Virus record (IMG/VR): IMGVR_UViG_3300025284_000001
Span: 1-63,580 of that record
Source of the DNA: a virus
Reading direction: 5' to 3' (one strand)
DNA: 63,580 nt
Within the stretch, counting starts at the first letter, position 1, and each line of letters opens with the position of its first letter. Positions 3,724 to 52,118 of this stretch are shown here, one piece after another. Both the position numbers and the translations under genes were made by a program. The notes beneath the pieces are model-generated. The model was not told the DNA's origin. It saw only the letters and a program-made list of their open reading frames with translations, and ran no database searches.

Positions 3724-5271
3724 TTAGTTGGCTACCGCGAGACTGACGACGGATCCGGCTGGCGCGATCAATGTTAAATGATTACCTCTCGCCCATGTTC
3801 CAGATGAGTTCTGAACAAATACCGGCTTTTCTAGACGGTAGCGAGGAGAATTCAAGACTCCGTTGACCTCTACGATCGTTGTGACGATGCCATTGTATTC
3901 ATTAAGAGCATTTCCGCCAGTGTTGCTGTTGTATCTAACGACATCACCCTTCTTAAACTCGCCTACCTCGCGTCCGATTGCCGCCCACTTCGCGACTTCT
4001 TCGGCTTTTGCTTTTTCCTCTTCAAGTTTGCGGCGCGCTTCCGCGACCTCTTCGACAGTTGCGCGGACGACGTTTTTCTCATGTTTCCAACCGATGCGTG
4101 CGCCGTCAAGAGCGTATACTTTAAACGGAAGCGTGGATTTATCATCAAGTCCGACGATTACGATATCCCCGACGCGGCCGGTACTGCCCCCGATAACCTT
4201 CGCATACTCCCCGACTTTCAATCGATCCATCTCCGCGATTTCCTGTTCGGATAGCTTCGCGAGCTGCGAAGGGAGTGCGTACCCAGTCTGTTGCTCACCG
4301 CCTGTAATTTGGATCTTGTTACCGATGAGATATCGCGGATTATTTACGGTGTACACATTCCCGTTTTTATACCCGTACAACGGACTCACACCACCGCCGC
4401 TAACCAATCGCACCTTGTCGCCTTTTTCGAAAGCAATGCGTGGATCTTTCGCCTTCTCTTCCTCCGCCTTCTGCGTTGCCAGTTTCGATTCGGCCTCGGC
4501 AAGTTGCGATTGCAACTCGGAAACTTGGCGTTGGAGGTCGTCGGCCGTTGCGATGCGCTCTACGAGAATACGTCCTTTTGATGTACCACTGTTGCAGAAA
4601 CTGCGCTCGTCATCCATGTCGTCGAAGAATACGCCTCGTTCTGATACGCCCAATCGTTTAATTTCGTAAACTTTTCCCTTTGTTAGATCCGTTTCATTAT
4701 GGAGCATATAAACGAAGTCACCAACTTTCGGCTTACGATCAACCTTGCGGTATTTCACGCCGTCCACTTCGATGATGTCATCCGATTGTTCCACGATTGG
4801 CTCAAGGACAACGTAATCTCCGTACGTATGAACCAACGTTTGTACATAACCGTCATCTCGTCTAAAGCGAACGCCGTTTGTCACATATGACTGTTCCGTG
4901 ATTGCAACTACGATATCGCCTCGTTTAAACGAATGCGAATATCCTCCAACTACCTTCGCTTTCTCACCAACTTCCGCCTTTCGATTCACCTCGCGATACT
5001 GCTGCGTCTGCGGCACGGATACTTTACGGAACAGCGTGTACTCGATGAAATACCCGTCAAAATCATCGCCGATGTTATCAATAATCTGCGGATCGTCGTT
5101 AGAGTCAATGCCTTCTACTTTGTAATACGCACCCGTTGTCACATATTCGGAACCCGTTTCATCAACGCGAAGGATGTCGCCAGCTTTCGGAGTCACGTCG
5201 ATCTTCTCGTACTTCACACCGTTGTACGCGATTGCTTCCGCCGTCAGAACTACACCGTTTAATTTCGCCAT
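3724..5271 (-). CDS. Repeat-rich protein of unknown function (multiple small beta-barrel-like modules); paralog of 53951..55081
   Basis: 515 aa; repeated Y-R/K-x-V-D/N-R-K-x-x-V-G-D/E modules (VKYRKVDRKPKVGDFV, QQYREVNRKAEVGEKA), central coiled coil. Confidence 0.7.
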   Translation of the reverse strand: MAKLNGVVLTAEAIAYNGVKYEKIDVTPKAGDILRVDETGSEYVTTGAYYKVEGIDSNDDPQIIDNIGDDFDGYFIEYTLFRKVSVPQTQQYREVNRKAEVGEKAKVVGGYSHSFKRGDIVVAITEQSYVTNGVRFRRDDGYVQTLVHTYGDYVVLEPIVEQSDDIIEVDGVKYRKVDRKPKVGDFVYMLHNETDLTKGKVYEIKRLGVSERGVFFDDMDDERSFCNSGTSKGRILVERIATADDLQRQVSELQSQLAEAESKLATQKAEEEKAKDPRIAFEKGDKVRLVSGGGVSPLYGYKNGNVYTVNNPRYLIGNKIQITGGEQQTGYALPSQLAKLSEQEIAEMDRLKVGEYAKVIGGSTGRVGDIVIVGLDDKSTLPFKVYALDGARIGWKHEKNVVRATVEEVAEARRKLEEEKAKAEEVAKWAAIGREVGEFKKGDVVRYNSNTGGNALNEYNGIVTTIVEVNGVLNSPRYRLEKPVFVQNSSGTWARGNHLTLIAPAGSVVSLAVAN

Positions 5272-5676: not shown

Positions 5677-5830
5677 GTTCCGCCTCCTCTACGTTGTGGA
5701 GCATCGGGACGGCGAAGACGAATGCCGCCCCAAACGCAATGATTGCTACGCCGATTCCGCCACGTTCCAGGACGAATCCACCCGTTGCCGCAAGCGCTAG
5801 AACCGATATGATTTCGAGTAATCGATACAT
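5666..5830 (-). CDS. small membrane protein (54 aa, below ORF-track cutoff)
   Basis: ATG at 5830 after GGAGGTGA; MYRLLEIISVLALAATGGFVLERGGIGVAIIAFGAAFVFAVPML...; stop overlaps next ATG. Confidence 0.45.
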   Translation of the reverse strand: MYRLLEIISVLALAATGGFVLERGGIGVAIIAFGAAFVFAVPMLHNVEEAEHGK

Positions 5831-5846
5831 TCGCGGTCACCTCCGA

Positions 5847-6623
5847 TTAAAAAGGAAGATCATCGGCCGAGATGTCGATCGGCTTCCCGTCGTCCGAGAA
5901 CGGCTCACTCGTAGGAGCCGACGTTGCCGCAGCGCCGAGTACCGATTTGTCCAACTTCGCTTCGTCCGATGCTTCCGATAGAATCTTCGTGATGTCGTCA
6001 ACTTCTCGGAAGTTTGCGAGTTCAGCGTAATCAATCGGTTGTCCGAGGAGCTTCTTCGCGGCTTCAAGGACGGCATCATCAAGTTCACCGGAGGACATTT
6101 CGTATGACTTTCCGTCGGATGTCTTTCCGATTACCACCGCGTCGCCAACAAGCGTGTAGTCCTTCTGGAACTTCTTCGCGGCCTTTTCGAGCTTGTCGAA
6201 ATCCCCGATAATGTTCGACGCGTGGAATTCTTTTAAGTCCAGCACGCGCCACTCGTTATACTCCGGATCGAATACAGGAACCATAAAGTACAATTTGCGT
6301 TTGGCCTTCGCAGCGCACGAGATGCACGCGGCTTTATCCGGCTTTTCATACTTCGTAAAATCTTCGCCAGTTCCGCGAGGACTGTGGAGACACGTATGCT
6401 TGCGTACATAAGTCGATCGTGTCGCAAAGTCTCCGTCTTCATGCGTATAGTAGAAGAACCATTTGTCCGGATCGGCGAGCAAGACGAATGTCTTTCCGTC
6501 TTTTAGCTCTTGGCCGAGTCGTACGTATCGCGTTACGCCTTCCGGAAGATTACTGTTACTTCCGCCATTTGCTGCTTGGTCGCGCTTTTCCTCACGCTGT
6601 TTTAGTACATTACGAATGCTCAT
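5847..6623 (-). CDS. putative ssDNA-binding protein
   Basis: 258 aa; Cys/His cluster HTCLH...CISC; disordered acidic C-terminus ending DISADDLPF, like the SSB DDDIPF tail. Confidence 0.5.
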   Translation of the reverse strand: MSIRNVLKQREEKRDQAANGGSNSNLPEGVTRYVRLGQELKDGKTFVLLADPDKWFFYYTHEDGDFATRSTYVRKHTCLHSPRGTGEDFTKYEKPDKAACISCAAKAKRKLYFMVPVFDPEYNEWRVLDLKEFHASNIIGDFDKLEKAAKKFQKDYTLVGDAVVIGKTSDGKSYEMSSGELDDAVLEAAKKLLGQPIDYAELANFREVDDITKILSEASDEAKLDKSVLGAAATSAPTSEPFSDDGKPIDISADDLPF

Positions 6624-6791: not shown

Positions 6792-7331
6792 TCATACATA
6801 AGCTGCTTTCGTATAGACCGCACTCTTCCACTCGGCCTCCGCGCTCTCAAGTAAGATACGAAACTCCCGTATCTCTTCGTAAAGTGCTGCGATACGTCCA
6901 TCACACGCAAGCTTTACCGCTTCACTTCGCGCTTTGACTTTACGCAAGTTTATTTCCGCAATCTCTACGTTAAGCTCCGCTATTTTAATGGTAGATTCTC
7001 GTCTGATTTTTTCGAGTTTCCGACCAATCCGACGAGCTTCCTTCTCCACGAGGTCGGTGACTTTATGCCTAATTTCACGATTCCTTCTTTCCGGCTTATA
7101 TACCGAGTGGACACGCAACTCCTTCGCGTTTACAACGATAAGAACAGAACCGTTGCTGAAAATCCGACGAAGGTTACCGAGCTTATCGAACGTGTCGCCG
7201 ATATAAACCGATGTTGCAAATTGTTCGCGAATCCAATTCCCAGCTTTGTCGTTCTCGACACCGAACCTTTCTCTTGCACGTTTACATGCATGTGGTTCGA
7301 TTTTTATTATCGTTTCTGACACCTCGCCCAC
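6792..7331 (-). CDS. hypothetical coiled-coil protein (179 aa)
   Basis: ORF track; C-terminal heptad-like E/K/R/I-rich region. Confidence 0.6.
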   Translation of the reverse strand: MGEVSETIIKIEPHACKRARERFGVENDKAGNWIREQFATSVYIGDTFDKLGNLRRIFSNGSVLIVVNAKELRVHSVYKPERRNREIRHKVTDLVEKEARRIGRKLEKIRRESTIKIAELNVEIAEINLRKVKARSEAVKLACDGRIAALYEEIREFRILLESAEAEWKSAVYTKAAYV

Positions 7332-16870: not shown

Positions 16871-17833
16871 TTATATTTTATTTACTCGTTTCACGTCGGG
16901 CGCGAGCCGGTGGAGAGGCGTTGCTTCCGCGTGTTGATGTTTCAAATCTTGATTCGCCAGGTTAACGTAATTTTCCGTCATCTTCAGCGTAGTGTGTCCG
17001 AGTAGATCCTTCAATGCGAAAACGTTCCCGTTACCGCGCAAGAAGTTTAGCGCAAAAGAATGACGAAGATCATACGGACGGATGTGTACCCCGAGCTTGT
17101 TGCAGTACATTTCCATACGGTCGCCCCACGTATGGCGCGTGAGATGCTTGCCTTCGTATGTGCAGAATATTGGCACGCTACTCCCCCATTCGGAAGGTCG
17201 GACGTGAATCAACCGTTTGATTGCCTTCACCGTTTTTGGTGAGAGCGGCAGTCTCCGAAATGTACGAGACTTCGCGGTTTCCTCGGGGATATACAGTTCC
17301 GACTCCTTCTCGCGAAAGTCTTCGGGAATTAGCCGAAATGCTTCGGATGGTCGAATACCTGTATCATAAGTAAGGAGAATTAATGTATAGTCGCGAAGCC
17401 CCGCAAAAGAACCTTGATCCGGCAATGTAAGAAGCTTCTTCAAAACATCGACGTCTATATCAACCTTGCGTCCCGTTGTTTTCTTTTTCTTTATTCCCGC
17501 AAGCGGATTTGATGACAGTTCGCTTTCTTCTACGCAATGATCGAGAAACGAGCGAAGATATACTAAGCGATTGTTGTACGTGGACGCCGCGATCTCTTCT
17601 GAGAGATGCGCAAAACATGAGTTTTTGAGTTCGTCGAATGAGTCCGGAGCATTCGGAAACCTCCGGAAAAAGAGGGATACGTGTTGCTGGTAATCGTTAA
17701 GAGTATGATCGGAGACTTTCTGTGCCCGTTTAAGGCGGAGGAAATCAGAGAGGAGAAACTTCCAGTCTAAACCACTTAAGTCGTCGTCTGCACTTATGCG
17801 TAATAATCGTGCCAAATAAAAAACCCCTTTCAC
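16871..17833 (-). CDS. int: Tyrosine recombinase / integrase
   Basis: 320 aa; catalytic Arg (DTGIRPSE), LRHSFA (H-x-x-R), LLGHT, TENYV (Tyr); start uncertain (GTG 17833 lacks RBS, TTG 17815 follows AAAGGGG). Confidence 0.9.
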   Translation of the reverse strand: MKGVFYLARLLRISADDDLSGLDWKFLLSDFLRLKRAQKVSDHTLNDYQQHVSLFFRRFPNAPDSFDELKNSCFAHLSEEIAASTYNNRLVYLRSFLDHCVEESELSSNPLAGIKKKKTTGRKVDIDVDVLKKLLTLPDQGSFAGLRDYTLILLTYDTGIRPSEAFRLIPEDFREKESELYIPEETAKSRTFRRLPLSPKTVKAIKRLIHVRPSEWGSSVPIFCTYEGKHLTRHTWGDRMEMYCNKLGVHIRPYDLRHSFALNFLRGNGNVFALKDLLGHTTLKMTENYVNLANQDLKHQHAEATPLHRLAPDVKRVNKI

Positions 17834-17882: not shown

Positions 17883-18049
17883 TTTATGCAACGGAAGGCT
17901 ATCGTTTATGCAATCGTTATGCAAACGAATCTACGAATCTAGCAACGTTTTTTAAGTCCTGTGCGTCTGCCAATTCCGCCACCCCGGCATATAAAGCGCG
18001 TTGTTACGCGATTTGTACGCCATATTCCGTAATGCTTCCGTTTATGCAC
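17883..18049 (+). repeat. CGTT(T)ATGCAA motif cluster 1 (4 direct copies)
   Basis: TTTATGCAA 17883-91 and 17905-13, TTATGCAA 17917-24, TTTATGCAC 18041-49; same motif recurs at 45772-46017. Confidence 0.7.
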
Positions 18050-18362: not shown

Positions 18363-18761
18363 ATGCCTCCTACGATGGCAACCGGAGAGGAACTCGAATT
18401 GATTAAATCTTACGTACTACTCCCGATGATATTATCCGCATACGAACGCGATAAGCAGATTATCGAGGAGTCCGTGAGAAATCCGGAAATATATACGGAT
18501 ATGATTTCGGCCGCAATGGATCGCGTTACGAAGATGTTGACGGAAATTAGACGAGAGTTTCGAGCGCGCGGGATAAAGGTATACGAAATAACTCGCAATA
18601 TGGAAGGAATACGCGCGGATTTTGTGTGTCGCGGATATACGAGTAACATACGGATGTTGTGGTCGTTAGTGAGAGCGCAGGCTAACGAAAGGATGCGTGT
18701 ATACATGAGCGCGGATACAACAACGGGAAATCTAGATCTGCCGGAGCGTTTGCGGACATAG
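18363..18761 (+). CDS. hypothetical protein (132 aa)
   Basis: ORF track; GAGGTGA RBS 6 nt upstream; no motif recognised. Confidence 0.7.
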   Translation: MPPTMATGEELELIKSYVLLPMILSAYERDKQIIEESVRNPEIYTDMISAAMDRVTKMLTEIRREFRARGIKVYEITRNMEGIRADFVCRGYTSNIRMLWSLVRAQANERMRVYMSADTTTGNLDLPERLRT

Positions 18762-44639: not shown

Positions 44640-45590
44640 TTACGCCGTCGTCACGAAGCAGCCGCAACCTCCGATATCATCTCTATCTATCTCCGCGCGT
44701 CTCTTCCCGTCCTCGTATATTTCACGAAGCCGCGAAAGAGAAAGTCTCTCAACTTTTTTGTTCCGAGTCCGCTTTAGGATCGTAACGTCCTTACCAAGGT
44801 GTTTTTGAATCTCTCTCTCCCTCTGCTCGTGGTATGCAAATTGTTCAGGAAAACGTTCGAGTAAATTTACGTAATGTCCTTGTCCTGCGCGTACACAAAA
44901 CCCGCCGCAGTTGTTGTGCGCGAAGCCGAGTCCGTAAAGTCGAGGTCGAGCAATTCCAACGAAATCTAAATGCGAAAGCATATCCGTTTTATCTATGTAT
45001 GGTTCGTCGCACATCGGAAACCTCACCAGATATGGTGACCAGTTTGCGACTGGAGCGGTAGTCCGATGATCCTCCGTCCAATCAATTCCGAGATACAAAA
45101 CGACGTCTGGCGCTTTATATTCGCGAATTCCATCCGAGCCTACCTCGACAAGCGGAAATGTTGATTTAACCCACTTTGCCGCGACTTCTTGCTTTAGCTT
45201 GTGTGAACACTGTGCCAATCTCGAATTGCCGAGATATCGCACGTTGAAAAACACGTCCCACGGAGTTCTCCCGTCAATCACCCAAACCAATCCGGGAATC
45301 AAACGCATTGCCTCCGACGCAATTTGCGGAATCAGTTGCTTCCGCAAATCTACGTCTGATTCGCTATGAATATCCGGAATCTCTTCGCATCGCGACAGAA
45401 GCTCGTCAGGTCGAGGCAAACCGTAGGCTTACGCGGTAGTTTCGATTAAGAAACGATATAGATCGCGATCCTCGATTAAGGTATCCGTAAATAGGTTGAT
45501 TACGTCGCCGGCCCCGTACTGAGCAATAATCCGCTGCAATGCCGACCAGCTTCCGATGCCACCCGAGTTGAAGTTTATATGTTTCGTCAA
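44640..45590 (-). pseudogene. PP-loop ATPase / PAPS-reductase-like gene interrupted by an in-frame TAA (45429-45431)
   Basis: TTG 45590 (AAAGGAG RBS) gives MTKHINFNSGGIGSWSAL...RFLIETTA then TAA, then the same frame continues AYG-LPRPDELL... as track ORF 44640..45419. Confidence 0.65.
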
Positions 45591-45771
45591 ATCGACGACT
45601 CCTTTCGTATCCCTTACGTTAGACCCCCGACTTCAAAAAATTGTGCGCAAGTTACAATCGTCTGTTGCAGCCCTCCGAAGCCACCCCTTTGGGGGGCTTT
45701 ATCGCGGTACAGTATTGACGTTTCGCACGAAAGGGGGTTTACCATTTCGTTGGCAATTCGTAATGATTACG

Positions 45772-46017
45772 TTATGCACCGTTTATGCAAGCACTTGTGC
45801 ACCAAATCCGGATTTTGACCTATAGTGTATCGTCATCAACCCGCATGGTTACGGCATTTATCAGAGTATGCATAAAGTACCGTTATGCAACGAATATTCA
45901 TTACCAGTGAATAGCGAAGCATATCCGCATAACCACGCGGTATCCCGCCGATTCTCTACGCGAGTCACTGGCAATTTATACAACGTGAGTAATACGAATG
46001 TCCGTTCGTTTATGCAA
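45772..46017 (+). repeat. CGTT(T)ATGCAA motif cluster 2
   Basis: 45772-79, 45782-90, 45883-90, 46009-17; weaker 45866-75; inverted copy at 46440-48. Confidence 0.7.
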
Positions 46018-46158
46018 TGGTTATACAGAACGCAGTCTCACGGAGAACTGCGTAGTTCCGTTGGATACCGATAAGTCAACGTCGACCCCCGTGAGTTTGG
46101 CGAGGGCTTCCGGTCTGACCTCTCTTGCAGATGAAACGCTAAGATCTCGGTAACCAAC

Positions 46159-46188
46159 GGATACCCTACGTATCCCACTCCGATACCC
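46159..46188 (+). repeat. GRTAYCC triple repeat at 10-12 bp spacing
   Basis: GGATACCC 46159-66, GTATCCC 46170-76, CGATACCC 46181-88; related copies near 45940 and 46063. Confidence 0.6.
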
Positions 46189-46278
46189 ATCGCTTCCTAT
46201 ATAAATACCGTTGAATCAACGCATACTTAACGCAGGTTACACTCGCTTGCTTATGCCTTAAAATCCACGTCAAATAAG

Positions 46279-46415
46279 CCGCTTAATCTCTCGCGAATAG
46301 GAACGTACCTAAACGGGAATCAAGCGGTTAATCTGACGGGAATCATACGGGATAATCATGCGTATACTAACGGCAATCACTCCGTTAATCATCCGCGAAT
46401 CATCCGTACAATCTA
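46279..46415 (+). repeat. Iteron-like array: nine CG-N2-3-AATC(A) units, mostly 11-13 bp apart
   Basis: AATC at 46285, 46318, 46330, 46341, 46354, 46375, 46387, 46398, 46410. Confidence 0.7.
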
Positions 46416-46667
46416 TCGTTGTAAAGTGTAGGTATAACGTTGCATTTACGTAGAGCTGGTAAGCTCATCGATAATGCAAAGATAAAAGATAGCCTGCGCG
46501 CCAAGGCGCTCGGCAATGTATTTACTTAATACTTTCCTCGCGTTCTCTTTATCGCGCGAAGAATTATTTATACCTAACCTGTTCGCGAGGAATAGTGTTC
46601 TTCTATTCCGAGTGCTATGTTTTGTTTCTCTTTTACTACTTGCTATTTTACTTCTTTCTATCTTTAC

Positions 46668-46709
46668 ACATCCGATATAGCATGTACCGTAACATCCGAT
46701 AACGGATGT
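46668..46709. repeat. ACATCCGAT half-sites including palindrome ACATCCG-ATAA-CGGATGT
   Basis: 46668-76 direct copy; perfect 7-bp-arm palindrome at 46692-46709. Confidence 0.65.
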
Positions 46710-46830
46710 ACTGATGCGTCCGTTATTGGACGTTAGGAAGACGTGTATAAGATAAGAATCAATTTCTCGATTTTTACGAGAAAAACGCCGAAATCCCTTT
46801 CTACGTAAGGCTTGCGAGGTTTTACGTCGT

Positions 46831-46884
46831 GTGCAAAAAAGGGTACCTAATTGGCCGATATCGTGCAAAAAAGGGTACCTAATT
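46831..46884 (+). repeat. 22-bp perfect direct repeat GTGCAAAAAAGGGTACCTAATT x2
   Basis: 46831-52 and 46863-84; the second copy covers the stop codon of the Rep-like gene. Confidence 0.85.
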
Positions 46885-47748
46885 TTCGTTAGGCACTCGA
46901 TAGCTTGCGAACATTGCACGTAAAGTTGCGTCAGGTTCACCGCTCTTACGATAGAAAACGTATGGATTAAGTACCGTTAGCTTCTCGCGCTTGTCCTCTA
47001 CGTTAATCCATTCGCCAATAATCTTCGCTTTACGCAAGCGCGTCAGCGCCTCTTTCGTCTTGGACTCGGTTAGACCGACTATATCCCCGATCTCCTTATC
47101 CGGAAGGAAACGGATATCTTCAGGAGCAACGAAAGGATCAGCGCATACCATGTTCGTTTCGTAATGAACGTGCTCTAACAACTTGAAGACGAATCCGAAA
47201 TCTGCCGCGCTAAGTTTGAACTTACGTAGCGGAGAGAAAAACGTCTTAATCAACGCATCTACTCCGTTAGCTTTGTCGCGAAAGTGATAACGCTCGTTTA
47301 TCGAAAAAACTCCGTCAACATCGAAAATGATGCTGCGGAGTTCAAATTCGCGGATTGCCGCTTGAGCCGTTCGTTTGGACACTTTCCATACCTTCGCGAT
47401 GTCTTGGACAGTTAATGGACGCGGCGTCCTTCCTTGCTCGACGAGTCTTCCCGTCTTATATTCGATATGCGGCTGTAACAAGAGCAAATAACCGCAATAT
47501 TTATTCGATAGTTCTCGCGTAATCTCTCGGATATTATGCATGTGTGTAAACGAGAAATCCCGTTTGTCTCGGCTTACTTGTGCGCGACGTCTACCGGCTT
47601 CTATCGATTCCATCGACTGGATACGATATATCCTTCCGTATGTATCTCGCGCATATCCGTTAGTTCCAACTGGCGTAAGCGTACCGACCGGCGCTTCCCT
47701 TCGAATGTCTCGTACTCGTTTCGCCAATTGCGCATTATTCATCGGCAT
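46879..47748 (-). CDS. Rep-like protein with two winged-helix-like segments (tentative replication initiator)
   Basis: 289 aa; VSKRTAQAAIREFELRSII and TESKTKEALTRLRKAKIIGEW; adjoins the iteron hub. Confidence 0.45.
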   Translation of the reverse strand: MPMNNAQLAKRVRDIRREAPVGTLTPVGTNGYARDTYGRIYRIQSMESIEAGRRRAQVSRDKRDFSFTHMHNIREITRELSNKYCGYLLLLQPHIEYKTGRLVEQGRTPRPLTVQDIAKVWKVSKRTAQAAIREFELRSIIFDVDGVFSINERYHFRDKANGVDALIKTFFSPLRKFKLSAADFGFVFKLLEHVHYETNMVCADPFVAPEDIRFLPDKEIGDIVGLTESKTKEALTRLRKAKIIGEWINVEDKREKLTVLNPYVFYRKSGEPDATLRAMFASYRVPNEN

Positions 47749-49401: not shown

Positions 49402-49453
49402 TTGTCCTCACCTCCATCTGTTCGGTGACCCGTTTAACGTATCACCTATATAT

Positions 49454-49482
49454 AATATAACATGACCCTTTTAGCGTGTCAA
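49454..49482 (-). promoter_or_regulatory. sigma-A promoter TTGACA-17-TATATT (leftward, early operon)
   Basis: -35 = revcomp 49477-82, inside the palindrome; -10 = revcomp 49454-59. Confidence 0.6.
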
Positions 49483-49496
49483 TGTTTATTTGACAC
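49476..49496. promoter_or_regulatory. Operator palindrome GTGTCAA-TGTTTAT-TTGACAC
   Basis: Perfect 7-bp arms; each arm supplies the -35 TTGACA of one divergent promoter. Confidence 0.65.
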
Positions 49497-49518
49497 TTTT
49501 TCCGTATCAAGATATATT
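49490..49518 (+). promoter_or_regulatory. sigma-A promoter TTGACA-17-TATATT (rightward, Cro-like gene)
   Basis: -35 at 49490-95, -10 at 49513-18, then AGGAGG and ATG 49539. Confidence 0.65.
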
Positions 49519-49538
49519 TTCAATAGGAGGTCAATAGC

Positions 49539-49748
49539 ATGTCAGTAATAAAATCGAATCTTAAGTTTTTTGTTGATAAAAAAGGAATATCAGTTAGACA
49601 GGTGGCGCGGGATATAGATTACCGACTAGAGTCCGTACAAAATATGTACAACGACACTATGGAGAGATATCCTCGCGAGCTGTTAGTCAAATTGTGCACG
49701 TATTTTGATTGTGAAATAAACGAGCTATTAGTAATAGATGATAATTAG
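49539..49748 (+). CDS. Cro/XRE-like HTH regulator
   Basis: 69 aa; KGISVRQVARDIDYRLESVQNMYN HTH. Confidence 0.75.
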   Translation: MSVIKSNLKFFVDKKGISVRQVARDIDYRLESVQNMYNDTMERYPRELLVKLCTYFDCEINELLVIDDN

Positions 49749-50330: not shown

Positions 50331-51724
50331 ATAACCGCCTCCACTCGTTGATTTTCCGAAGCCTGTCCGTTGCCGCCGACAGACTCCGTTAGTAACCGCT
50401 GTATCAAACGCCTGCTTGTCGCGCTGATAACGTTAACTGTGACGGCATTCCCCGCCTGCTTATACAATTGCGAATCGCTCACGCCAGCAGCTCGTACCTT
50501 ATCGAACTGCGCGTCGGTAAATCCTTGTAGACGCCAACACTCACGAGGTGTAAGCTTACGAATGCGATAACGTGGCTTTTCAAGTAACGCATGCTCTATC
50601 GTTTGCGTTGCAGTAACACAATTAGATAACCCATCTGTGCGCGGAACTATGACTTTGCCGCGTCTCGGCGAGAAATCACGGCCAAGTTTTCGAGACTCCC
50701 TTCGAATAGCTTTCGCCTCTTCCGACCGTCTTTCCGTGAGTGCGCACGCTTCAATTACGTGAGTTCTACGCCCCTTACCAACGTCTCTGGGCGAAGTTCC
50801 TTTCGCGTAACTTGCGTCTACTGTATAAGCTACACCAGAACCATCCGAATATTGTTGCAATTGAGGTTCCGCAATCTTTTGTGCACGCCCACCTCCACTA
50901 ACGACTGTGAGCGTAGGCGCGACGCCATAGACATCATACACGCGATTCATTTGATCGTTACCGTAGTGTTCGAGTGAACCGAAAATTACAGGGCTGGTCG
51001 AGTCATTCCGTTCGTTGAGTTGCTCGATAAGTTTCACTGTCTTCTCCTCGGACAGGTAGTATTTCTCGTCGACCTCCGATTCTAGGACATCTCGCAGGCG
51101 TTTAGTAACCGCGCTATTAGTCGGCCAATCGAAATTAAACGTTTTAACACCTAACGCCTGGATGCGTTTTTTCGCCTTGGATACAACGTCCTTACCTTCG
51201 ATATCCCACGGCTCATGCTGTGTGTCACGAGCACATGCGAGGATTATTCTTTCGCGATTTTGCGGAACGCCGAAGTATTTCGAGTTCAACACCACGAAGT
51301 CAATCGCGTATCCGATATCGTTGAGTGCTTGCGCCATAACTTCGATAGTACGTCCTTTGTCGTGTGACAATAAGCCTTTCACATTCTCAAGGAGCATCAT
51401 TCTCGGACGTTTCTCTTTCGCGATACGTGCAATTTCGAAGAATAATGTTCCGCGAGTGTCATCAAACCCCTTACGCTGTCCTGCGACGCTGAATGCCTGA
51501 CAAGGAAACCCCGCCACAAGCAAGTCGTGATCCGGAATTGTTCGCGCGTCAATCTTCGTTATGTCGCCGCGTAGTTCTGGAGCTCCGTCGTACAACGCTT
51601 TGTACGACTGTTGCGCGAATCTATCGATTTCACACGCGAAGACGCACCGGCCGCCTAGCTCGTCCAACGCAGAACGGAAGCCACCAATTCCCGCGAACAA
51701 TTCGATATAGTCGAATCTACTCAC
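50327..51724 (-). CDS. DNA (cytosine-5)-methyltransferase
   Basis: Motif I FAGIGGF, IV GFPCQAFS, VI LLENVKGL, X YKQAGNAV; long variable region. Confidence 0.9.
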   Translation of the reverse strand: MSRFDYIELFAGIGGFRSALDELGGRCVFACEIDRFAQQSYKALYDGAPELRGDITKIDARTIPDHDLLVAGFPCQAFSVAGQRKGFDDTRGTLFFEIARIAKEKRPRMMLLENVKGLLSHDKGRTIEVMAQALNDIGYAIDFVVLNSKYFGVPQNRERIILACARDTQHEPWDIEGKDVVSKAKKRIQALGVKTFNFDWPTNSAVTKRLRDVLESEVDEKYYLSEEKTVKLIEQLNERNDSTSPVIFGSLEHYGNDQMNRVYDVYGVAPTLTVVSGGGRAQKIAEPQLQQYSDGSGVAYTVDASYAKGTSPRDVGKGRRTHVIEACALTERRSEEAKAIRRESRKLGRDFSPRRGKVIVPRTDGLSNCVTATQTIEHALLEKPRYRIRKLTPRECWRLQGFTDAQFDKVRAAGVSDSQLYKQAGNAVTVNVISATSRRLIQRLLTESVGGNGQASENQRVEAVI

Positions 51725-52118
51725 GCAATCCCTCCGCTTCCTCTACCGCCATATCAGCGCATACCTCGCCGTAATCCCAATCGCGAAAGACTCTCGCAAT
51801 CTTCCTACATGCTTCCGAGTTAAACTTCGTTACGGCTTGCCTTGTAACGGACATCTCTTCCGCAGACTCTTCGTGGGTCAAACCACATCCGTATAGATAC
51901 GTAATGGCTTCCGCTTGCCGCCTCGATAGTTTCGCTCGGTCGATAGCTTCGTTTAGATCGATGATGATGTCGCATGCGACGTAATCGCCGGTAAACCTAC
52001 GTGCGGCAATCTTATGCCGGTCGCGAAGCAACTTCTCGACTCCTTTCGAAGTGTTTAACGCGTATGATTGCGTGTACTTGCGGGAATCCTTCGCAATGTC
52101 GACTTTTACTGCGCCCAT
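51717..52118 (-). CDS. sigma-70 region-4-like transcription regulator (late activator candidate)
   Basis: 133 aa; LSRRQAEAITYLYGCGLTHEESAEEMSVTRQAVTKFNSEACRKI. Confidence 0.5.
   Translation of the reverse strand: MGAVKVDIAKDSRKYTQSYALNTSKGVEKLLRDRHKIAARRFTGDYVACDIIIDLNEAIDRAKLSRRQAEAITYLYGCGLTHEESAEEMSVTRQAVTKFNSEACRKIARVFRDWDYGEVCADMAVEEAEGLRE

Follow-up and report, generated by a model that had tools for sequence, protein, structure and literature searches.

Phages with direct terminal repeats have one copy of the repeat at each concatemer junction; their terminase makes its cuts at fixed positions, and DNA synthesis supplies the second copy (PMC10438801). We analyse here a region of about 1.3 kb, called the hub (positions 46878-45591), in the virus record IMGVR_UViG_3300025284_000001, whose full 63,580 nucleotides constitute the window. 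The window represents a temperate siphophage of Paenibacillus type (~63.5 kb) with nearly all its genes on the minus strand; all the genes around the hub are on that strand, and the modules are read with coordinates decreasing. The hub probably holds the packaging cut site of this phage, in the form of a predicted ~465-bp terminal repeat with phased short repeats on either side, together with a conserved module, M1, that adjoins the gene of a 289-aa tandem winged-helix (wHTH) protein. As a concatemer junction of a terminal-repeat phage, the region would be a further case of a known kind and not an unprecedented one. What it adds, as far as sequence comparison can tell, is an uncharacterised but widespread module combining a tandem winged-helix protein with a phase-locked predicted site. 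We regard the finding as a useful annotation and an experimental lead, not as a new biological principle.

Among the closest described systems are the Halcyonevirus phages of Paenibacillus larvae (Halcyone, Heath, Scottie, Unity and Tripp; PMC6256684, PMC6070908), whose genome is collinear with the window and whose large terminase, TerL, is 41% identical. Read coverage gave these phages, including Tripp, direct terminal repeats of 377/378 bp, base 1 of the genome being the first repeat base (PMC6256684, PMC6070908). Like the window, they have a wHTH homologue (30% identity) followed by a direct-repeat pair and a CTTAT(A)TCTT box, a left motif at about nt 23 of the repeat, an internal GATGCATAAACGATGCAT element, a CCCCCAAGGG hairpin ~30 nt before the right end and a CGCGCACCAAAAAT block after the repeat, although nucleotide similarity is confined to such short motifs. 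Unlike the window, they have M1 and the repeat set apart by a helix-turn-helix (HTH)-type terS and two small genes, and they show a single TGCATAA-type site where the window has 5-7. The predicted repeat of the window is ~90 bp longer than theirs. A 150-bp array such as family c (below) was not seen upstream of their repeat, where no systematic search was made, and no integrase gene was seen in the Halcyone annotation, whereas the window has one.

A second group comprises the Bacillus phages 268TH002 and 268TH007, with terminal repeats of 310 bp determined by PhageTerm (PMC9476937), phage phi18-2, and the Sporosarcina phage Lietuvens, whose 437-bp repeat is annotated in its record. Their TerL is 47% identical to that of the window, and the three Bacillus phages encode a wHTH homologue (34-35% identity), located in 268TH002 in a sigma-factor cluster. 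This group shares with the window the offset of the left motif, GATGCAT/TGCATAA within the repeat and a related block after it. It differs by a small tyrosine-recombinase gene between the repeat and terL; in 268TH002, moreover, opposite-strand genes stand as a block between the wHTH gene and the repeat. Beside the wHTH gene of this group, a search for repeat pairs spaced at 32 bp detected none.

Two more distant systems offer analogies. In the T7 concatemer junction, the terminal repeat is flanked by arrays of short repeats and the packaging signal lies inside the repeat. The hub would resemble it in three ways: its predicted repeat is short, with fixed sites at which a terminase bearing a T7-type nuclease domain would cut; arrays lie on both sides; and palindromes stand near the boundaries. 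However, the present phage is an unrelated temperate Firmicute siphophage with different repeat units and no phage RNA polymerase, and the role of its arrays is proposed by analogy. Activator-dependent late promoters of Gram-positive phages include those governed by TP901-1 Alt, with upstream direct repeats, and by phi29 p4. The comparable features would be a DNA-binding protein gene just before the late or packaging genes and phased repeats upstream of a weak core element; in contrast, the protein family is unrelated, 7-10 turns separate the repeats from the box, some relatives have the module inverted and the promoter is only a candidate.

Predicted direct terminal repeat

We call a terminal repeat in the hub because the window is collinear with phages of mapped repeats, its TerL is a related enzyme of T7 type, and the boundary motifs lie at the same offsets. 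Among the four functions that the preliminary description of this DNA had proposed for the region, a packaging or termini site is the best supported, as a direct terminal repeat rather than as a cos or headful pac site. TerL matches the Pfam family Terminase-T7_RNaseH-like (35 bits, for a cut-off of 27) and, in tblastn searches of deposited phages, is 41-47% identical over its full length to TerL of Halcyone, Tripp, 268TH002 and Lietuvens. With TerL and the wHTH protein as queries, these searches place the two genes towards opposite ends of the Halcyone-cluster genomes, terL on the left and the wHTH gene on the right; both are also found in 268TH002/007 and phi18-2, and TerL alone in Lietuvens. 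Halcyone is collinear with the window throughout, over terL, portal, head, tail, lysis, replication, nucleotide metabolism, sigma factor, wHTH gene and terminal repeat. The hub occupies the place that the repeat has in Halcyone, Tripp and 268TH002, with the wHTH-gene side on one flank and terL on the other. We confirmed exact repeats at the record ends of Tripp (378 bp) and 268TH002 (310 bp).

Both predicted ends carry the boundary motifs. A left motif of the type CCCTCG(A)AAC..TTTCGG starts at about repeat nt 23 in Tripp, Halcyone, 268TH002, phi18-2 and Lietuvens, and at the same offset from the first base of the virome contig L036. In the window, the motif reads CCCTCGCCAAACTCACGGGGG at 46106-46086; the form GCCCTCGCCAAACTCACGGGGG occupies 46107-46086, and therefore nt 1 of the repeat is placed at 46128 (a previous placement of the left end at ~46056 was replaced on recognising this motif). 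The related locus L042 has almost no changes over the ~75 nt that span the predicted left boundary, beyond which similarity drops sharply. On the right side, the repeats of Tripp, Halcyone and Lietuvens end 30-32 nt past CCCCCAA, with a CGCG(Y)A(Y)CAAAAAT block a further 11-16 nt on; a related block also follows the mapped repeat of 268TH002 and is present in L036, L005 and L008. The window displays CCCCCCAAAGGGG, which holds the G/C hairpin, then GGGCTGCAAC and then TTGCGCACAATTTTTT, an order that therefore sets the last repeat base at about 45664, 31 nt past CCCCCAA. Boundaries predicted in this manner from motifs would be accurate to about +/-5 nt, and the motifs are short, hence supportive rather than proof. 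From repeat start to the following block the window counts 478 nt, and L042 and L007 count 475 nt each although the sequences diverge in between.

In minus-strand order, the hub and its margin divide as follows.

46895-46745, minus strand: module M1, with repeat family e and a box; aligned in every relative
46744-46565, no strand given: lineage-specific variable slot, A/T-rich, with a 15-bp tandem repeat (46631-46667) and the family-d palindromes (46668-46709)
46564-46420, no strand given: module M2, with a GC palindrome (46492-46514) and a 48-nt imperfect palindrome (46436-46483)
46418-46257, minus strand: family-c array, ~14 positions of a GATTnnCCG unit (as read on the minus strand), period ~11.5 bp
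46256-46129, minus strand: pre-repeat conserved block, with the family-b array (46145-46188) and GATCTTAGCGTTTCATCT abutting the predicted cut site
46128-45664, minus strand: predicted direct terminal repeat of ~465 bp, with the left motif and, near its right end, the G/C hairpin
45663-45591, minus strand: post-repeat block TTGCGCACAATTTTTTGAAGTCGGGGG (45650-45624), then the ribosome-binding site of the first packaging-side gene
44636-44540, minus strand: second phased array, c', of ATTnnCCG-type units with ~11 bp phasing, just upstream of terS

A GATGCAT/TGCATAA-type element is found inside every mapped repeat, 75-100 nt before the right end in Halcyone and Tripp. All copies of family a (CGTT(T)ATGCAA) in the hub lie inside the predicted repeat, and arrays b and c stand immediately upstream of its left boundary. 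Array c' is also seen upstream of terS in L007, and Halcyone has a AATTTCCCGTGAATTTCCCG array after its repeat; the predicted repeat is therefore bordered by phased short-repeat arrays upstream and downstream. Two metagenome contigs match the window exactly over the hub; they are circularly permuted relative to the window, and neither breaks at the hub. The window and both contigs contain one internal copy each of the predicted repeat, a single copy being expected in a prophage and also in an assembly, since assemblies of terminal-repeat phages collapse the copies (PMC10438801). Among viral contigs, an 18-mer from the predicted repeat gave 7 matches, one of them a true relative (L036).

The hub would be the stretch of non-coding control DNA where early genes give way to late ones, in a temperate siphophage whose packaging relies on short direct terminal repeats. 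Its terminase would cut concatemers at the repeat boundaries, with packaging duplicating the repeat. A conserved internal element of the repeat would be family a, which reads TGCATAA(A)CG on the minus strand; the G/C hairpin lies ~30 nt inside the predicted right end. By analogy with the repeat arrays of T7, the phased arrays c, b and c' could order the DNA, or bend it, where concatemer units join. Provided that the boundaries are correct, genome ends in metagenomic and prophage copies of a group of Paenibacillus, Brevibacillus and Bacillus phages could be located by two rules, a left motif at about nt 23 of the repeat and a right end ~31 nt past CCCCCAA.

Module M1 and the tandem winged-helix protein

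Comparison of related loci (47 in all, most of which carry a wHTH homologue) shows M1 to be a DNA-level module tied to the wHTH gene and subject to strict helical phasing. Its perfect 22-bp repeats, reported previously as family e, are present at 46831-46852 and 46863-46884 with starts 32 bp apart; in reading order, M1 contains the repeats 46884-46863 and 46852-46831, a TTCGGCGTTTTT block (46792-46781) and a ATTGATTCTTATCTTAT box (46763-46747). The first repeat overlaps the TAG stop codon of the wHTH gene. The conserved box after the TTCGGCGTTTTT block reads ATTnnTTCTTATCTTAT, also written CTTATCTTAT. M1 can be aligned in 14 loci, inverted copies included, and its nucleotide identity is often above the amino-acid identity of the adjacent gene.

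The repeat pair is found flush with the wHTH gene, either up- or downstream, in 22 of 22 loci, its copies matching at 17-20 of 20 positions with a spacing of 31-32 bp. These loci include Halcyone and L023-L025, where the protein is just 30-36% identical and the repeat sequence quite different. Within the repeat, the TTTTTTGCAC half is constant, and the other 8-9 nt (here TAGGTACCC) vary between phages while being identical in both copies of each phage. Between the second repeat and the box, the 14 loci have 74, 83-86, 94 or 105 nt, which at 10.5 bp per turn makes 7.0, 7.9-8.2, 9.0 and 10.0 turns. In L017, L018, L019, L020 and L022, the whole of M1 is inverted and located immediately upstream of the wHTH start codon.

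The 289-aa protein matches HTH_Crp_2 and other wHTH families of Pfam, and its AlphaFold model contains two winged-helix domains (pLDDT 77). Foldseek and a PDB sequence profile gave no strong PDB match, and no functional name emerged from NCBIfam, the PDB profile or Foldseek. We retrieved 74 homologues, some of them in prophages of Paenibacillus and Brevibacillus, and no close relative in viral contigs. For a family annotated only as hypothetical, MarR-like or AsnC-like, the pairing with M1 provides a first functional handle, and the pair offers a testable case of a protein and its predicted site co-evolving under strict helical phasing.

We infer that the 289-aa protein binds the M1 pair and communicates with a factor at the box. 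Two identical 22-bp sites three helical turns apart would form its cognate site, from which the bound protein would contact something at the CTTATCTTAT box on the same face of the DNA. The likeliest partner there would be RNA polymerase, at a promoter of the packaging or late genes. A late promoter had been among the functions suggested for the region, and a regulatory module beside the upstream gene, possibly such a promoter, is plausible in view of the conservation of M1, its phasing and its pairing with the wHTH gene. A candidate activator gene is adjacent and helically phased repeats lie upstream of a putative core element, the arrangement of activator-dependent late promoters. A scan for sigma-A promoters and terminators returned fewer promoter-like sites than shuffles, and terminator-like hairpins in M1 were not conserved.

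There is a limited chance, to be taken over both possibilities together, that the wHTH family and M1 form an undescribed, self-contained module widespread in Bacillales phages, or that family a is a site for a recombinase or regulator. The marks by which the former could be recognised are two identical sites of 20-24 bp three turns apart, a whole number of turns to the CTTATCTT box and a specificity half co-evolving with the protein.

One relative, L017, has two tandem M1-like units, at 4841-5124 and 5732-5967, each with a 73-nt segment that is 99% identical between the units. Besides a GA(T/G)AAGATAAG box, each unit contains two 21-22-bp repeats spaced at 32 bp, with repeat sequences that differ between units. 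One unit lies ahead of an XRE-family gene and the other ahead of the wHTH gene; three 23-bp tandem repeats are found at 4671-4739.

Repeat families and conservation of the hub

Motif counts were compared with 1000 dinucleotide-preserving shuffles of 45591-46878. Every repeat family is commoner in the hub than in the shuffles, so that chance enrichment, which could have undone the preliminary description, does not explain them. For family a, four exact direct copies of CGTT(T)ATGCA stand (45770, 45780, 45881 and 46007; shuffle mean 0.02, with 0/1000 shuffles reaching 4). The inverted copy that had been placed at 46440-48 does not, being a mere degenerate arm, TGCATTTACG, of the 48-nt imperfect palindrome. 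An inverted TTATGCA at 45869 forms, with the copy at 45883, a conserved palindrome (DNA fold z -2.4). Family b (GRTAYCC) gives 6 matches, three of them in 46159-46188 as described (shuffle mean 0.58, 0/1000), and these three belong to four GGTAnC units phased at 11 bp over 46145-46188. The nine matches of family c (CG-N2-3-AATC) were also recovered, at 46209-46413 (shuffle mean 2.2, 0/1000), within a fuller array of ~14 unit positions (46257-46418) whose period is ~11.5 bp, with autocorrelation peaks at 11-12 and 23. Family d (ACATCCGAT) is exact at 46668 and 46692, with an inverted CATCCG at 46703 (0/1000 shuffles). The G/C hairpin AGCCCCCCAAAGGGGTGGCT is present at 45679-45698 (-9.3 kcal/mol as DNA), but it is only modestly above shuffles (z -1.5). 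The five families had been taken together as one hub; they belong instead to at least four separate modules with differing conservation.

Judged by its pattern of substitution, the hub is non-coding yet conserved in related prophages. The previous statement that it has no credible gene holds, its sole long open reading frame (ORF; 46446-46940, minus strand, 164 aa) being without a family match. Compared with L042 and L007, substitutions show no 3-base periodicity in any module; by codon phase, those of an adjacent coding gene are distributed 8/1/30 in the same comparison (p = 2e-8). A tRNA search of the hub returned none, and in blastn against deposited phages the coding flanks alone matched. 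Loci L005-L016 and L024 share the order wHTH gene, 1.2-3 kb, terS/terL, and L007, from P. dendritiformis, has at the same place a 1365-bp interval with no called gene. An intact gene in relatives had been named as a possible objection: the closest relatives are also non-coding here, but the family-d slot holds an ORF of 89-90 aa in some of them (L042, L008 and L004).

The modules differ in how far they are shared. The variable slot (46565-46744) has no homologue in any relative (DNA fold z -3.0) and, with its family-d repeats, is by this comparison without a conserved role. The draft contig of L004 (P. alvei LDHX01000057.1) ends within this slot, at 7185, 321 bp past the wHTH gene, and the repeats may have caused an assembly break there. 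M2 is common to L042 and, in part, to L007 and L008. Its 48-nt palindrome (46436-46483), with outer arms of TTGCAT type, looks like a candidate operator; it folds as DNA with a z of -5.7 (0/200 shuffles) and is 96% conserved in L042. The family-c array is 79-87% identical in L008, L007 and L042, and its copy number varies by whole units, L042 being 51-57 nt and L007 23 nt shorter. From 46256 to 45591, the sequence is shared end to end with L042 and L007 at ~64-84% identity by segment; the pre-repeat block (46129-46256) is 72-80% identical to both, and the 27 nt of the post-repeat block are identical in L007, with two differences in L042. The family-a core also occurs in L005, a locus of P. apiarius, and in L006 and L008, between a 135-aa HTH gene and terL.

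Family a is found outside the hub as well. Four further same-strand copies are located at 17884-18048 (plus strand), beside the integrase gene, in a cluster between the integrase start (17833) and a plus-strand gene at 18363. Of the 14 TTATGCA sites in the window, nine fall in the predicted repeat or in this integrase-side cluster, and CGTT(T)ATGCAA itself is confined to these two places. The integrase-side copies could be arm-type sites of the integrase or operator sites common to the repeat, and CGTT(T)ATGCAA may more generally be bound by the integrase or another site-specific factor. A DnaA box was dropped as an explanation, the match being limited to TTAT. Cre-loxP circularises the P1 genome, and by analogy family a might have a role in circularising the incoming linear genome by recombination between repeat copies. 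A hint in this direction comes from recombinase genes beside the repeat. Indeed, a gene for a tyrosine recombinase of ~180 aa (catalytic domain only) lies just upstream of terL in five related Bacillales phages, namely Lietuvens, 268TH002, phi18-2, PK2 and KLEB27-1, listed as follows.

L045, 590-1138: tyrosine-recombinase gene
L033, 1100-1651: tyrosine-recombinase gene
L046, 985-1536: tyrosine-recombinase gene
L047, 1022-1555: tyrosine-recombinase gene
L034, 7831-8376: tyrosine-recombinase gene

In Lietuvens, 268TH002 and phi18-2 the gene stands between the terminal repeat and terL. Two observations weigh against circularisation: the small recombinases were ruled out as orthologues of the window integrase (22% generic similarity), and Halcyone has no second cluster of family-a-type motifs.

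Alternative explanations and genomic context

Several points weigh against a terminal repeat accompanied by a late promoter at M1. The predicted boundaries rest on motifs of ~20 nt in otherwise diverged sequence, and the predicted length of 465 bp differs from that of all mapped relatives (310, 377/378 and 437 bp). In 268TH002 and the Halcyone cluster, a gene of HTH type annotated as terS precedes the repeat, whereas here terS is downstream; Halcyone has a second terS annotation, downstream of the repeat. Array c and family a are probably not terS-specific sites, because they are kept across relatives with differing terS types (HTH_Tnp_1_2 versus HTH_23), and a pure packaging role would fail to explain the family-a cluster beside the integrase gene. 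As for M1, its inversion in five relatives fits a simple late promoter poorly; in L017 it points away from the downstream virion-structural genes. No good sigma-A -35/-10 pair was found at M1, just a weak TATCTT -10-like hexamer with no -35. The box is moreover unique in the genome, and a reiterated late-promoter motif was ruled out on its uniqueness in the window.

The strongest competitor, though an unlikely one, makes M1 and the 289-aa protein an iteron-type origin with its initiator (a second origin or the main one), the 22-bp repeats being iterons and the A/T-rich box an unwinding element. The protein does recall plasmid Rep proteins in its ~290 aa and two winged-helix domains, and its family gives weak Pfam matches to Phage_rep_O (8 of 24), HTH_36, DnaD_N and RepL, but these are all generic winged-helix matches, mostly below cut-off, and neither Foldseek nor a PDB profile search with the 289-aa protein retrieved a replication initiator. 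Plasmid origins keep helical phasing between iterons and unwinding element, and the occurrence of M1 plus gene in either orientation and in other phage contexts resembles that of self-contained origin modules; yet there are two repeats only, 32 bp apart, in 22 of 22 loci, and no contiguous iteron array. Furthermore, a full replication module lies ~30 kb from M1, the wHTH gene travels with a sigma-factor cluster at the early/late boundary in the window, Halcyone, 268TH002 and KLEB27-1, and the hub shows no GC-skew inflection. The origin advanced in the preliminary description is thus disfavoured by the paucity of repeats, the absence of a clear initiator signature, the distant replication module and the link to the sigma-factor cluster, and a centromere-like site found no support. 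Slightly less probable than an origin is a cos site or headful pac site, with the phased arrays as binding sites of the small terminase. A spot just upstream of terS/terL is typical of cos and pac sites too, the terminal-repeat ends of this phage are inferred and not observed, and terS is placed differently relative to the predicted repeat than in the relatives with mapped repeats. Against this, TerL has a T7-type nuclease domain, direct terminal repeats occur in those of its relatives whose ends are published or annotated, and both predicted boundary motifs lie at the right offsets. The cos phages of P. larvae have a 9-base 3' overhang, CGACTGCCC/CGACGGCCC, ~50 bp upstream of terS (PMC6070908), and the overhang motif CGAC(T/G)GCCC has 0 matches in the whole window.

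The remaining two explanations are far weaker than these. That the hub specifies structured RNA (one molecule or several), for example an antitermination element or a large ornate phage RNA, is highly improbable. The long non-coding conservation, with invariant blocks interleaved with variable ones, and several local hairpins that fold better than shuffles would suit an RNA, but Rfam gave nothing at gathering thresholds nor at E <= 1, RNAalifold returned 0 pairs for M1 in 14 sequences, and the covariation term for the alignment of the predicted repeat was unfavourable (+1.58); besides, M1 occurs in both orientations with DNA helical phase kept, which argues for a role at the DNA level. Decay of a protein-coding region, the least credible of all, is already largely refuted. 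It could draw on the nonsense mutation in the neighbouring PAPS-reductase-like gene and on the 89-90-aa ORF or 135-aa HTH gene that some relatives have in the equivalent interval. However, substitutions lack codon periodicity in every module, the corresponding 1365 bp of L007 have no called gene, all three frames of the hub are full of mixed stop codons, and the PAPS-reductase domain begins at its PP-loop motif at 45590, with no N-terminal part missing into the hub; the slot 46565-46744 alone could be a replaced gene. A packaging cut site at a direct terminal repeat is the preferred explanation of the hub.

The genes that frame the hub, and two distant modules, are the following.

51717-52118, minus strand: small sigma-like factor, 133 aa
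50327-51724, minus strand: C5 methyltransferase, with uncharacterised genes between it and the wHTH gene
46879-47748, minus strand: gene of the 289-aa tandem winged-helix protein, the last gene before the hub
46878-45591: hub, ~1.3 kb, no credible gene
45590-44640, minus strand: PAPS-reductase-like gene (phrog_424)
44511-44041, minus strand: terS
43790-42021, minus strand: terL
42030-40414, minus strand: portal gene
1-16.6 kb: replication module, with initiation-protein matches, a DnaC-like loader, DnaB-like helicase, primase and DNA polymerase I; ~30 kb from the hub
16871-17833: integrase gene

As had been stated in outline, the hub separates the packaging genes from the last gene of regulation or DNA metabolism, but the upstream gene, which had been assigned to a Rep operon, encodes the uncharacterised wHTH protein, with generic winged-helix matches. 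On the packaging side, the PAPS-reductase-like gene is split by a single in-frame TAA at 45429-45431 (minus strand), present in both source assemblies. From this comparison, the gene of this phage is a nonsense mutant or pseudogene, because L042 has CAA at that codon and an intact gene of 316 aa. A hidden N-terminus of the gene, or recoding of the stop, was rejected: the domain starts at 45590, L042 has CAA for TAA, and the hub frames are full of mixed stops.

On the other side, ~2.7 kb upstream of the hub, a lone plus-strand XRE/HTH_26 gene of 69 aa (49440-49748) has a good sigma-A promoter (TTGACA-17-TATATT) and a palindrome, GTGTCAATGTTTATTTGACAC, ahead of it. It looks like a candidate local repressor or switch, and relatives also keep a plus-strand HTH gene of XRE type.

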